A stretch of DNA of 64,000 nt from Escherichia phage vB_EcoM_G8: sequence record NC_054915.1, one strand, 5' to 3'. The notes under the pieces were generated by a model. The model did no database searches. It saw only the letters and a program-made list of their open reading frames with translations, and was not told where the DNA came from. A program made the position numbers and the translations under genes. Shown here piece after piece: positions 11,147 to 40,097 of this stretch (the first letter of the stretch is position 1; the number at the start of each line of letters is the position of its first letter).

Positions 11147-11923
11147 CTACTTCTCTACCCGTTTATATGAAACAATGTAATTTGGATAATTGTCATCTAA
11201 ACACAAATCTTTAATACGACTTGGGTGGAGTTTTAAATCTTTAGCAGCATCCACAAATGATTTATAGATATTGTCATTTATTTTAACATATTCTGGGACG
11301 GGATGAATTGTTATTTTTATATCTATAACATTTGGATGATTACTAACCTGTTCTTCAGAGCATTTAAGAAATTTTGCAGCTGATTTAAAACTTCTAAATT
11401 TATTTCCGGATTTTAAAGCTATAGAAACAGTCTTTTTAGCCGTTCTACTACCAATATTATTTTTAACATGAGCTTCACTTCTACTATTATTTTTATAATG
11501 CTCAATCAATTTCTCTCGTATCTTATCTTTATGTTTTAAAGATAAGATTTTACCTTTATGGGCATTACTAAGTTTTTGCTTATGTTCTTCTGAATCCGGA
11601 TATTTGTTAAATTTATATCCACCTATAGATTTATTAAGAATAAATTCGTTATTAAAATATTTCCTAATAAGCATTTCTTCATGTTTAAGGGCCGATTCAT
11701 AAGAATCAAAAACTTGAAGAATTATCCACTTAGCTTTATAATCTTTAAGCTTTTCTTTAACAAGCTTAGATGACGAATTGTATTCTTTCCAATTTGTATC
11801 TTTACCATATATAGTTTTGAATTTTTTAAAACCTATATAAAAAGACTTATCAGGAAATCTTACCATATAGGTAAATGCTACAGAATTGGCAAGTTTTAAG
11901 CTTTTTCTTAATTTCCATTTCAT
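11147..11923 (-). CDS. I-TevII: Intron-encoded homing endonuclease, I-TevII-like
   Basis: 258 aa ORF in the 3-prime part of the intron; N-terminal GIY-YIG-like FYIGFKK...NSS; length matches recalled I-TevII. Confidence 0.75.
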   Translation of the reverse strand: MKWKLRKSLKLANSVAFTYMVRFPDKSFYIGFKKFKTIYGKDTNWKEYNSSSKLVKEKLKDYKAKWIILQVFDSYESALKHEEMLIRKYFNNEFILNKSIGGYKFNKYPDSEEHKQKLSNAHKGKILSLKHKDKIREKLIEHYKNNSRSEAHVKNNIGSRTAKKTVSIALKSGNKFRSFKSAAKFLKCSEEQVSNHPNVIDIKITIHPVPEYVKINDNIYKSFVDAAKDLKLHPSRIKDLCLDDNYPNYIVSYKRVEK

Positions 11924-11930
11924 CGTTTCA

Positions 11931-11955
11931 CCTCGTATTCATATTTATACGAGGA
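11931..11955 (-). promoter_or_regulatory. Hairpin enclosing a late promoter and occluding the I-TevII ribosome-binding site
   Basis: Minus strand CCUCGUA-UAAAUAUGAA-UACGAGG; TATAAATA spans stem/loop; 3-prime stem strand contains the GAGG Shine-Dalgarno just upstream of ATG 11923. Confidence 0.6.
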
Positions 11956-12158
11956 TAAACAGCTGCATGTCACCATGCAGTTCAGACTATATCTTCAACT
12001 CTTAGAGTTGTCTGCCGTTTCGGGTCGCTTGACCCTACTCCCTTACATTCATCAGGGATAGTCGTTGGGCATTTACAGCTACTGCTGATTTAGCAACGGA
12101 TTGTCTCAGTGAGAGTTTCCCGTTTTAGGCAGATTTTACATGAGCTTGACTTACGTTA

Positions 12159-20761: not shown

Positions 20762-20790
20762 TTTGTGTTCCTCCGTAGTTGATAGTTGTA

Positions 20791-20819
20791 TAGTACCACA
20801 GAGGAACGGTCTTGTAAAC
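20791..20819 (-). promoter_or_regulatory. T4 early promoter with conserved leader
   Basis: Minus strand GTTTAC -35 and TGGTACTAT -10; followed by conserved leader ACAACTATCAAC. Confidence 0.55.
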
Positions 20820-22207: not shown

Positions 22208-22230
22208 ATCCGTATCAGTTGATAGTTGTA

Positions 22231-22260
22231 TAGTACCATAAAGCTTTATGCTTGTAAACA
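22231..22260 (-). promoter_or_regulatory. T4 early promoter with conserved leader, preceded by terminator hairpin
   Basis: Minus strand GTTTAC -35, TGGTACTAT -10, same leader as at 20778-20798. Confidence 0.55.
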
Positions 22261-22280
22261 GTTTTGTGAAAAATTTTTGA

Positions 22281-23746: not shown

Positions 23747-23943
23747 GCCATGTGAGTTGCAACTTCATCACACATATTATAACGTTTCTTAAGAAGTTCT
23801 ACAAGTTCTTCACTAGTAACTTCATCCATGTCGACGAAAAAATCACCATTAATGATGACGTAGATATTTCCTTCTTGATTGAGTGCTTCAATTTTCATGA
23901 TGTTCTCCTCTTTATCCGATAGTTGTATAGTACCACAGCTCAA
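23710..23943 (-). CDS. Hypothetical small protein
   Basis: Minus-strand ORF 77 aa. Confidence 0.4.
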
Positions 23944-30503: not shown

Positions 30504-31082
30504 TTAGGAATTACGGGCTGCATTAGCAACGGCGTAAGCGTACTGGACATTAGCGTCTTTAAACGTACCTTTAGAGGTATCTATTTCTGCCTTAAAGCCG
30601 CCTTTAGCCATAACATCGGCAAATTCTTTACGGAAAGCCATTGCATCAAGACCTTTCCATGATGATTTATGCTTGGCAAATTCAAGACCAGCGTAGTTGA
30701 CAGCCTTAGCTAATTTATTATCAATAACCCATTTACCGGCTTTAGGCACAAACTTCGGGCCTTTTTGTTTAGAGAACAGTTTTAAATTCCAGCGACGAAG
30801 GTCACTGTCGGCTTTAACAAAAGCTGCGTCTAAGTTACTAGCAACAACATCTTCAATATGGGCAAATTTAAGTCCGTCAACTTCAATATTTAGATCGTTA
30901 CGCCAGCGAAGTCCTTCCCAAGCGAAGGCTTTAAAGTCGGAAGCCTTTGTAGCTAAGTACCGTTCAATAGGAGCTGTTTTAGGGTCAAAGCCGTTTCCCG
31001 ATCGGTAGGTCCACTCATCTTTATTAATGCCTTTGGCCTTTACTATAGAAGCTTCGGCAATAAATTCTTGATAGGTTTTCAT
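30504..31082 (-). CDS. ipIII: Internal protein with capsid-targeting leader (IPIII-like)
   Basis: 192 aa; N-terminal MKTYQEFIAE-A capsid-targeting sequence; early promoter at 31111-31140. Confidence 0.6.
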   Translation of the reverse strand: MKTYQEFIAEASIVKAKGINKDEWTYRSGNGFDPKTAPIERYLATKASDFKAFAWEGLRWRNDLNIEVDGLKFAHIEDVVASNLDAAFVKADSDLRRWNLKLFSKQKGPKFVPKAGKWVIDNKLAKAVNYAGLEFAKHKSSWKGLDAMAFRKEFADVMAKGGFKAEIDTSKGTFKDANVQYAYAVANAARNS

Positions 31083-31573: not shown

Positions 31574-32376
<803 letters not shown>

Positions 32377-35968: not shown

Positions 35969-36000
35969 GTTGTTTTCTGTATCAGTAGTTGATAGTTGTA

Positions 36001-36029
36001 TAGTACCATGGAAGAACAGGGATGTAAAC
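36001..36029 (-). promoter_or_regulatory. T4 early promoter with conserved leader
   Basis: Minus strand GTTTAC -35, TGGTACTAT -10, same 21-nt leader as at 20778, 22219, 23917. Confidence 0.55.
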
Positions 36030-36162
36030 AGTTTTGTGAAAAATTTTTAAAAAATTTTAGGGAATTCTAGGGTCAGGAGGGGCAATTAAAAGGTAGGATA
36101 ATATTATTATAAAGGGTATAAACTAAATGATGCCTAGAGAGGCCCGGAAAGGCCTAGATACC

Positions 36163-36190
36163 AAAAAGCCCCAACCTTTTGGTCGGGGCT
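36163..36190 (-). terminator. Rho-independent terminator (copy B)
   Basis: Minus strand AGCCCCGACCAAAAGGTTGGGGCU hairpin followed by U-run; near-identical to the copy at 36697-36725. Confidence 0.6.
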
Positions 36191-36197
36191 AAGAATG

Positions 36198-36659
36198 TTA
36201 TTTGATTTGTTTAGCAGACCAAATGCGGTCTTTGATGATTTTTTGGAGGTCTTCAACATACTCTAGGTCATGAGCATGTGGATTATCTTTGAAACTATAA
36301 GCACGCGCAAGTTTCTGGCCTTCGGTCTTAATTATCAAAAGTTCTTTAAGAATTGCTTCATACCTAGAGATAATTCCTTTAGCAATATTTTTTTCTTGTG
36401 CTGCTTTAGGGTCAGCCTTAGGAGCAGGTTTACCAGAAGGTTTTTCGAAAGCCGCACCAGTAGCAACCAGGCTTTTCCAGGCGGTGGTAACATAGTTACC
36501 CACAAAGCCTTCAGCTCTCATATCGTCATAGAACTTGTACCGAGATTCGTCAGAAGCATCTTTATAAGAATATTTACCAGCTTTAATAGCAGCAGTTGCT
36601 ACAGCGCGAACATCTGAAGCGGATGCTTCGGTCATTAAAAATTGAGCATAAGTTTTCAT
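36198..36659 (-). CDS. Internal-protein-like ORF with capsid-targeting leader, in its own late-promoter/terminator cassette
   Basis: 153 aa; N-terminus MKTYAQFLMTE-A; TATAAATA (36688-36695) 28 nt upstream of ATG; flanked by near-identical terminator hairpins. Confidence 0.55.
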   Translation of the reverse strand: MKTYAQFLMTEASASDVRAVATAAIKAGKYSYKDASDESRYKFYDDMRAEGFVGNYVTTAWKSLVATGAAFEKPSGKPAPKADPKAAQEKNIAKGIISRYEAILKELLIIKTEGQKLARAYSFKDNPHAHDLEYVEDLQKIIKDRIWSAKQIK

Positions 36660-36687
36660 TGTTATTTCCTGTGTTAATTAACTCATC

Positions 36688-36695
36688 TATTTATA
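36688..36695 (-). promoter_or_regulatory. T4-type late promoter (TATAAATA)
   Basis: Exact TATAAATA on the minus strand between terminator copy A and the ATG at 36659. Confidence 0.55.
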
Positions 36696-36696
36696 T

Positions 36697-36725
36697 CAAA
36701 AAGCCCCAACCTTTCGGTCGGGGCT
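36697..36725 (-). terminator. Rho-independent terminator (copy A) at the end of the tRNA/small-RNA cluster
   Basis: Minus strand AGCCCCGACCGAAAGGTTGGGGCU hairpin (GAAA loop) followed by UUUUU. Confidence 0.65.
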
Positions 36726-36734
36726 AAGCCTTGC

Positions 36735-37030
36735 TGCAACCTTGTCGGGGTTCCACCTGCTAAGGCAAGTGTTTGTACGAAACGCCGGGACTTGAACCCG
36801 GTTATTAAGTAGTTGACGCTACTCAATATTTTTAAAAGGCCATATCTCGACCATATCCGAACGTTCCGTCAAAAACGCTACTCGGCTTATGGCAAAGATA
36901 TTTCCTCGAATCGATAATTCGGTGCGCCGTTTCTGCTGTGATGTAAGAGGGCATTAGCAGATCGTAAAGATTTGTTAATGCCAGTCCTTAAACAGGGAAC
37001 ATCAGTCCGACGACTTACCGGTAGCGACCC
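36735..37030 (-). ncRNA. Small stable RNA region (T4 species 1/2, rnaC/rnaD-like)
   Basis: About 300 nt without ORF between tRNA-Arg-proximal ORF and terminator; contains a tRNA-like T-arm (GGGUUCAAGUCCCGG); boundaries approximate. Confidence 0.4.
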
Positions 37031-37036
37031 GGTTTC

Positions 37037-37387
37037 TTAATATTCTTTTAAAGCATCAATTTGTTCACGGCGTTTACGCCATAAATCAATTGCTTCATAC
37101 GCGGATTCAACATTTCGAATTGGTCGGCATTTATATAAAGATTTGTGATTTTGATATTGTGTAGATAACGGAATTTTATCTAAAAGGTCTTTACGTTCAA
37201 AATATTCGTAACCATCTAAACCAAATGAACGATTTTTGAGAAATTGCCAATGACCATATTCGTTTTCGATATAAACATAATCTGCGTGCTGATAAAGCAA
37301 ATTAATTACGCGTTCAGAAATAACAGTGTCATTGTGATTAAAATAGAATGTTAAATCATGAACTACTAAATAAACATTACCTTTCAT
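37037..37387 (-). CDS. Hypothetical protein
   Basis: 116 aa from ATG 37387 with GAGGAA Shine-Dalgarno; ORF-track upstream extension overlaps tRNA-Arg and is rejected. Confidence 0.45.
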   Translation of the reverse strand: MKGNVYLVVHDLTFYFNHNDTVISERVINLLYQHADYVYIENEYGHWQFLKNRSFGLDGYEYFERKDLLDKIPLSTQYQNHKSLYKCRPIRNVESAYEAIDLWRKRREQIDALKEY

Positions 37388-37405: not shown

Positions 37406-37482
<77 letters not shown>

Positions 37483-39788: not shown

Positions 39789-40097
39789 CTATTTTATTCC
39801 GCGTGATGCAATTGTGTTCTGCCGTTTAACACCAGTCTGTTTAAAGTCATGATTGTCGATTTGATCGGTACGAGCAACTCCGAATGATGATTTGATCTTA
39901 GCCTTAGATCCTTTAGTTATAGAAATAAACATCTCGGAAGCCCCTTTCTTAAAGTCCGAGGCGATTACTTCAACGCCGTTCTTAGCAAGTGACTTCAGAA
40001 TTGCCTCAGCATACTCATCGTCAAGACTCGCCTGAGTATTAATAACGAATGTCTTTGGCGCAGCCGCTTCATTGATAAATTCTTTAAATGTTTTCAT
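39789..40097 (-). CDS. Internal protein with capsid-targeting leader (ipI-locus position, adjacent to 57B)
   Basis: 102 aa; N-terminus MKTFKEFINE-A capsid-targeting sequence; early promoter at 40125-40157. Confidence 0.6.
   Translation of the reverse strand: MKTFKEFINEAAAPKTFVINTQASLDDEYAEAILKSLAKNGVEVIASDFKKGASEMFISITKGSKAKIKSSFGVARTDQIDNHDFKQTGVKRQNTIASRGIK

Follow-up and report, generated by a model that had tools for sequence, protein, structure and literature searches.

The 64-kb stretch of Escherichia phage vB_EcoM_G8 analysed here (64,000 nucleotides of NC_054915.1, hereafter the window) is a segment of a T4-like (Tequatrovirus) genome whose nearest records, RB27, VEc20 and vB_Eco-B1.1, are about 98% identical to it. 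On the minus strand, between the small-RNA gene rnaC and gene e.8, it carries an open reading frame (ORF) for a protein of 153 amino acids (aa), enclosed by two nearly identical terminator hairpins (Table 1). We consider, with a probability of about 0.6, that the ORF is an accessory gene, expressed late, for a T4-type internal protein (IP) that is packaged in the phage head, and that it forms part of a hairpin-bounded cassette, with anti-defence as its probable, separately hedged job. The components of this reading differ in strength: packaging of the protein in the head appears likely, and an anti-defence role, argued by analogy, is a possibility that we place somewhat below even odds. The ORF has the coordinates, length and MKTYAQFLMTE-A start that the original prediction had assigned to it. 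The same prediction took the gene to be new, a view that must be given up, as it is already present in about 500 sequenced phages, each time as a 'hypothetical protein'.

The leader-bearing protein

The N-terminus of the protein is MKTYAQFLMTEASASD, with a leader that reads MKTYAQFLMTE↓A (the arrow marks the actual or predicted cleavage site). In T4 the capsid-targeting sequence comprises the first 10 residues of IPIII; genetic evidence makes positions 4 and 7 important for targeting, mutagenesis assigned processing to positions 8 and 10, and the prohead protease gp21 cleaves after L/I-x-E (PMC9026906). The propeptides of T4 head proteins normally have 10–20 residues (PMC9026906; PMC5694885). 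The T4 leaders themselves are MKTYQEFIAE↓A in IPII and IPIII and MKTFKEFTSTTTPVSTITE↓A in IPI (MKTFKEF...ITE↓A). The stretch MKTYAQF has both targeting residues, Tyr4 (Tyr or Phe in the class) and Phe7, and to that extent the T4 internal-protein leader recognised at first reading stands; the strict L/I-x-E protease motif does not, as the window allele, F-L-M-T-E↓A, places Met at P3 and has its Leu one residue earlier, at P4. In most orthologs the predicted cleavage site is LNE↓A, LTE↓A or LTE↓Q. The FLMTE form is rare, being found in about 10 phage records and in a metagenomic homolog of 72% identity (P0004).

Homologs that have diverged to 46–58% identity keep their leaders (MLKFNEFLAE↓G, MLEYSEFLKELFCE↓A, MKFKEFLAE↓A and MLNFNEFLAESQEINE↓A), and the leader type [KL]x[FY]xEFLxE is retained in homologs as low as 46% identity. 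Preservation of the leader while the rest of the protein diverges suggests that the leader itself is under selection, which argues for the proposed assignment. Real ORFs with such a leader number four in the window, at three loci, the cassette gene included. The other three, all on the minus strand, are an ipIII-like ORF (30504–31082, 192 aa), described in PHROGs as an internal virion protein, and ORFs at 31574–31855 (93 aa, phrog_3499) and at 39789–40097 in the ipI locus (102 aa, phrog_2667), both described as internal head protein.

Evidence for virion association comes from the Yersinia phage fD1, whose 157-aa ortholog, Gp140, was classed as particle-associated after passing the strict threshold in liquid chromatography–tandem mass spectrometry of purified virions; it is marked there as having no T4 counterpart, and the adjoining e.8 product went undetected in the same virions (PMC8309999 Table S3). 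We regard this detection as supportive, not decisive. A broader search for virion proteomes from phages bearing the gene yielded nothing beyond fD1, the paper on fPS-2 and fPS-90 being one without proteomics.

The mature protein, as predicted, is basic, with an isoelectric point (pI) of 9.4 and 25 Lys and Arg against 19 Asp and Glu residues. Searches of Pfam, NCBIfam and PADLOC gave no family match for the 153-aa protein; in PHROGs it belongs to phrog_2280, of 'unknown function', and all database names for the gene are 'hypothetical' or 'uncharacterized'. Nothing below E = 0.5 emerged from a sequence-profile search of the PDB, no resemblance of the mature protein to a solved or annotated structure was seen, and a comparison with the named IPs (IpI–VI and the RB69 IPs) detected no similarity. 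An exhaustive HMMER search of 1.84 billion representatives returned eight matches, all of them family members or fragments, and no distant annotated relative, so the family appears narrow.

This is a real gene under strong purifying selection. The ratio of nonsynonymous to synonymous divergence (dN/dS, omega) is 0.08–0.18 overall at dS up to 1.8, with values of 0.03–0.05 in the C domain and 0.09–0.25 in the N domain. The comparison with SA20RB reveals an intragenic mosaic (dS of 2.4 for the N domain, against 0.11 for the C domain), and in KP01 and MHG19 the N domain is joined to a different C domain; the mosaic and the domain swaps across genera together point to domain-level recombination within the family. 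Several metagenome-derived proteins (P0009, P0010, P0042 and P0043) are chimeras of the family with other genes, in which, for example, a trna.3-like N-terminus precedes the last 27 residues, the first 31 mature residues are joined to NudE, or the N domain is joined to unrelated sequence. Natural deletion or recombination may have produced them, or they may be artefacts of assembly. The AlphaFold2 model (predicted local distance difference test, pLDDT, 73.5) has a disordered leader, a three-helix N domain (residues 14–67, pLDDT 85–91), a Pro/Lys/Ala linker (68–83) and a long C-terminal helical hairpin (84–150). Neither the family searches nor the modelled fold, a generic helical one, points to a function.

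The cassette and the states of its site

Both flanking terminators have, according to the terminator scan, a 10-bp stem with seven GC pairs and a 4-nt loop, and they are one loop base apart (GAAA versus AAAA). Their folding energies are −20.3 kcal/mol for the upstream (z = −4.3) and −19.5 kcal/mol for the downstream hairpin (z = −4.5), with none of 200 shuffled sequences as good. The duplication of the terminators with a difference in the loop only, as originally claimed, is borne out by a direct repeat of 32 nt (36697–36728 and 36162–36193; 31 of 32 positions identical, blastn-short E = 7e-10), the sole pair of its kind in the window. In RB27 both hairpin copies bear AGCC where the window has GACC, and copies within a genome may co-evolve by gene conversion; another locus (L014) is without such a paired variant, so this pattern is not general.

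The exact late box reported ahead of the ORF is likewise present: TATAAATA starts two bases past the upstream T-run and is separated from the ATG by 28 nt, within which AGGA lies. The motif is not over-represented in the AT-rich window (eight copies on the strand against about eight expected), and because a single copy is within chance expectation, its designation as a late promoter rests on position and conservation. The annotation of SA20RB labels the corresponding box as a late promoter, and all 14 loci examined from this family (hereafter A) have the hairpin with its T-run, the box (T/A)ATAAATA, 28–40 nt from there to the ATG, and a hairpin past the stop codon. The downstream hairpin copy gives way to unrelated sequence, with the early promoter of e.8 about 135 nt further on. 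Foreign origin was also considered on the basis of composition and discarded: the G+C fraction of the gene (0.40–0.45) exceeds that of the window (0.35), yet it is similar to that of the nearby e.6 region and is not diagnostic.

In T4, e.8 and rnaC are separated by 284 bp with no ORF and a single copy of the hairpin; the gene is extra relative to T4, as had been suspected, and has no T4 name. The T4 hairpin shares its 5' flank and GAAA loop with the upstream copy of the window and its 3' flank, GGTATCTA, with the downstream one. Such a chimeric single hairpin is the junction expected from recombination between two copies. The site is contiguous and empty not only in T4 but also in T2, T6, RB3, RB5, RB6, RB7, RB9, RB10, RB55, RB59, VEc74, F2 and PST. 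A tblastn search of the phage collection found the protein in 510 records, in 468 of them at full length; e.8 is present in 595 records (the gene being present in about 80% of e.8-bearing records), and IMG/VR contributed only seven more loci. The gene occupies the same site across Tequatrovirus, Mosigvirus (mobillu) and Dhakavirus (IME341), and diverged relatives of 177–180 aa are found in Jiaodavirus KP01 and Yersinia phage MHG19 in the same succession of hairpin, TATAAATA, ORF and hairpin.

A second occupant of the site, B, encodes an unrelated protein of 187 aa (162 aa in CT01) that starts MKTYAEFLTE↓AAKLPSE and is found in RB14, IME340 and CT01. It is RB14ncORF136c, and a frameshift splits it into ORF148c and ORF149c in RB69 (the coordinates in the locus extracts are 557–1120 for RB14, 1118–1681 for KarlGJung and 11429–11991 for RB69). 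B occurs in 165 phage records, is at least 95% identical in 164 of the 165, and has its own late-type box and terminator. The two cassettes are alike in site, in their hairpin, late-box, leader-ORF and hairpin layout, in leader type, in PHROG assignment (phrog_2280) and in hypothetical annotation; they differ in that the downstream hairpin of B has a different stem and its copies are nearly invariant. Homology between the A and B proteins beyond the leader was considered and found no support, with BLASTP aligning the leader only and hhalign giving a probability of 10.8%, although both are placed in phrog_2280. In KarlGJung (Bas37), NIC06P2, KK4, EcNP1 and others, A and B stand in tandem, with B downstream of A. 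The site exists in four states, empty, A, B and A+B, and the A unit is in every case bounded by the hairpin, which provides strong comparative support for gain and loss of the cassette by hairpin recombination. Judged by sequence, the rnaC–e.8 junction is a third polymorphic site for predicted internal-protein cassettes.

Table 1. Positions of the cassette features and adjoining elements in the window, in the direction of transcription
Feature	Position	Strand	Description and basis
rnaD	36921–37039	−	
rnaC (species 1 RNA)	36776–36914	−	final gene of the tRNA/small-RNA transcription unit; all 139 nt covered in a local alignment to T4 rnaC; T4 and RB27 annotation
Upstream intrinsic terminator (predicted)	36697–36725	−	hairpin 36702–36725, GAAA loop, U5, T-run to 36697; left copy of the direct repeat; terminator scan
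Putative late promoter box, T4-type, TATAAATA	36688–36695	−	exact, read from the sequence; position and conservation
Shine-Dalgarno sequence AGGA	36667–36670	−	7 nt 5' of the ATG; sequence
Whole ORF, 153 aa and stop	36198–36659	−	identical to vB_EcoM_G8 YP_010069430.1; ortholog of RB27_136, RB32ORF133c and fD1 g140
Leader codons 1–11, MKTYAQFLMTE	36627–36659	−	capsid-targeting-sequence-like; gp21 cleavage predicted after Glu11
Predicted mature protein, 142 aa	36201–36626	−	15.8 kDa, pI 9.4
Downstream intrinsic terminator (predicted)	36163–36190	−	hairpin 36167–36190, AAAA loop, U5, T-run to 36163; right copy of the direct repeat; terminator scan
e.8 early-type promoter (GTTTACA...TACTAT)	36000–36028	−	promoter scan; alignment to T4 and RB27; SA20RB annotation; T4-collinear sequence resumes here past the cassette

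The gene order on the minus strand runs from the tRNA cluster, with a segB-like gene, through tRNA-Arg, an extra 116-aa ORF, rnaD, rnaC and the cassette to e.8–e.1 and e. The eight ORFs counted between e and the cassette gene correspond to e.1–e.8 of T4, as had been proposed; the small RNA gene that adjoins the cassette is rnaC and not rnaD, as it had been named. The 116-aa ORF (37037–37387, minus strand; MKGNVYLVVHDL...; phrog_3355, 'unknown function') lies between tRNA-Arg (37406–37482) and rnaD. The tRNA of T4 and RB27 lies directly next to rnaD, and the ORF is thus another insertion/deletion polymorphism inside the small-RNA cluster. Coding sequences of the same size (345–351 nt), matched by size and position, are found there in RB69 (ORF150c), mobillu, KarlGJung, CT01 and IME340. 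The e.8 early-promoter block (35985–36048) is repeated exactly, over 18–26 nt, at 20775–20798, 22217–22278 and 23918–23935. These are dispersed regulatory repeats of the type proposed to mediate shuffling in T4-type genomes.

Proposed role and competing explanations

If the gene encodes a packaged internal protein, the upstream hairpin, a strong predicted terminator, would end the early and middle transcript of the tRNA and small-RNA cluster, and TATAAATA, judging from its position and conservation, would drive late transcription. The leader starting with MKTYAQF may then bring the protein into the scaffolding core of the prohead, as Tyr4, Phe7 and the conservation of the leader suggest, and gp21 would probably cut off 11 residues after Glu11, a step made uncertain here by Met at P3. 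The 15.8-kDa basic helical protein would stay in the filled head and enter the cell with the DNA, by analogy with its class and with one virion proteome in support of head association. Most likely it would act early in infection by binding a host anti-phage factor and neutralising it, purely by analogy with Ip1, Ip2 and Ip3, which act on distinct GmrSD nucleases. Homologous recombination between the two hairpin repeats that flank the cassette would account for its presence or absence among phages; T2, T4 and T6 represent the empty, single-hairpin state.

Several observations weigh against this picture. The window allele has Met at P3 and not the Leu or Ile of the gp21 motif, and its product might be packaged uncleaved. 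The mature protein resembles neither a named IP nor any solved or annotated structure, and late transcription, cleavage, injection and phenotype are all predictions. The virion proteome of fD1 is of low specificity: 113 of 277 products, non-structural ones included, are called particle-associated (41%, or 49% on looser criteria; PMC8309999). Finally, the omega of 0.03–0.05 in the C domain is unlike the diverse IP family (PMC3012670) and fits a conserved partner or a structural role equally well.

The last point leads to an alternative in which the protein, although packaged, serves in the structure of the head or in DNA handling there or at ejection, for instance in charge neutralisation, DNA condensation or help in core assembly, comparable to the part that has been suggested for IPIII in head morphogenesis. 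The basic character of the mature protein would suit this, as would the persistence of the low omega in the C-terminal helical hairpin at dS of about 1 across phages of different hosts and DNA modifications, and T4 IPIII and triple-IP mutants do have head-assembly aberrations (PMC9026906). However, T2, T4, T6 and many others have normal heads without the gene, polymorphic presence and shuffling as a cassette are what accessory host-range genes typically show, and all three T4 IPs now have anti-restriction targets (PMC12373910), so we consider a structural role unlikely. We think it very unlikely that the product is a late cytoplasmic protein that is never packaged, with a leader that owes its likeness to recombination among ip-type gene starts and a detection in fD1 that reflects carry-over. 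The imperfect L/I-x-E motif of the window allele and the breadth of the fD1 list speak for it, as does a site outside the two described IP loci, beyond which Arbiol et al. place no IP genes in T-even genomes (PMC2839356). Against it, all homologs, even at 46% identity, retain the leader amid divergence elsewhere in the protein, which argues for selection on the leader; the dedicated late promoter, as predicted, fits the timing of prohead assembly, and fD1 Gp140 passed the strict threshold while the neighbouring e.8 product was undetected.

A further question concerns direction only. The original prediction had a module inserted by recombination between hairpins, and the promoter–gene–terminator unit with duplicated hairpins is indeed there; it is the insertion that has become doubtful. 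Loss from T2/T4/T6-type genomes is more parsimonious than recent insertion, because the gene lies at the same site in several genera and ortholog dS reaches 1–1.8; more probably, T4 lost the gene rather than this phage gaining it. A recent insertion at the rnaC terminator of this lineage, with T4 as the ancestral state, would account for the single T4 hairpin, which is exactly the junction expected of an unoccupied target. It would also account for the near identity of the two hairpin copies in the window and the AGCC variant shared by those of RB27, both expected after a recent duplication, and DNA is freely exchanged among T-even phages. Yet gene conversion explains the likeness of the hairpin copies equally well, the orthologs in Tequatrovirus, Mosigvirus and Dhakavirus occupy the same site at dS of about 1–1.8, the diverged Jiaodavirus and MHG19 relatives share the layout, and the great majority of e.8-bearing records (about 80%) have the gene. 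We therefore regard recent insertion as quite unlikely. The best-supported reading is that the cassette gene goes back to the ancestry of much of the Tevenvirinae and later disappeared from the classical T-even phages, although frequent exchange among co-infecting T-even phages prevents a firm polarisation of gain versus loss.

A tentative extension, which we find rather doubtful as a whole, is that the rnaC–e.8 junction is a third internal-protein site, operating through late promoters and hairpin recombination and unrecognised in the accessible literature and annotation, and that type A, its main occupant, is an abundant, conserved injected effector directed against a conserved host factor or against a defence other than the GmrSD variants countered by Ip1–3. 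If type A is such an injected effector, the chance absence of the gene from T2, T4 and T6 alike would explain why it went unstudied. The recognition in 2025 of T4 Ip1–3 as type IV restriction inhibitors makes every unstudied leader-bearing protein a concrete anti-defence candidate, and the anti-defence hypothesis is open to direct test. The gene is present in most sequenced T4 relatives, therapeutic phages and phages of the BASEL collection included; the classical laboratory phages lack it, and it has neither a name nor an assigned function. As predicted here, internal-protein genes would extend beyond the two published loci. The four states of the site offer a clean natural example of gene shuffling through terminator-hairpin recombination.

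Relation to internal proteins and PeSL cassettes

The T-even IPs form a highly diverse family with the leader alone in common (PMC3012670), and more than 30 IP variants are counted according to Comeau 2007, as cited in Arbiol et al. (PMC2839356). Silas et al. 2025 demonstrated that Ip1, Ip2 and Ip3 are inhibitors of type IV restriction enzymes, each directed at a different GmrSD (PMC12373910). The cassette protein is like the T4 IPs in its MKT[YF]xEF-type leader ending in Glu↓Ala, in being small, basic and non-essential, in being present or absent among close relatives, and in having only the leader in common with other members. Its dispensability and polymorphism are apparent from its absence from T4, T2, T6, the RB3 group and PST and its presence in about 470–510 records. 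No sequence or fold similarity to IPI*, Ip2 or Ip3 was found.

The differences from the T4 IPs are also clear. The cassette protein is far more conserved than the IP family as described, its mature sequence is unlike that of any named IP, the window allele has L-M-T-E versus the L/I-x-E of the T4 IPs, and its packaging and injection are predicted. According to Arbiol et al., IP genes are absent from T-even genomes outside the two described loci, ipI and ipII/ipIII (PMC2839356), a described property and not a strict definition; the present gene lies at rnaC–e.8. The ip genes of T4 have early-type promoters directly upstream (PMC2839356), whereas the cassette has its putative late promoter behind a GC-rich terminator. 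No annotation names the gene as an IP, including those of the Krisch-lab PST record and of RB69, in which other IPs are named, and the ORF names RB32ORF133c and RB69ORF148c appear in no paper of the searchable literature; the family may be among the more than 30 variants counted.

The architecture of the cassette recalls the 'promoter-early stem-loop' (PeSL) cassettes of RB49 and phi1 (Arbiol et al. 2010, PMC2839356; Comeau et al. 2014, PMC4122927), in which an accessory ORF likewise lies between repeated stem-loops. The cassette has the repeated stem-loop of a PeSL, in the form of its 32-nt repeat, with the single motif at the empty site represented by the one hairpin of T4. It does not have the sigma-70-like early promoter, in place of which the late box TATAAATA is found, and the PeSL repeats a composite element of about 100 bp whereas the cassette repeats the 32-nt hairpin only. 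Both systems leave a single chimeric motif at the empty site of a relative and have a promoter and a terminator of their own, and in both, recombination between the flanking motifs accounts for gain as well as loss. With its PeSL-like boundaries and its T4-type leader, the cassette gene appears to be an unnamed addition to the known internal-protein class.

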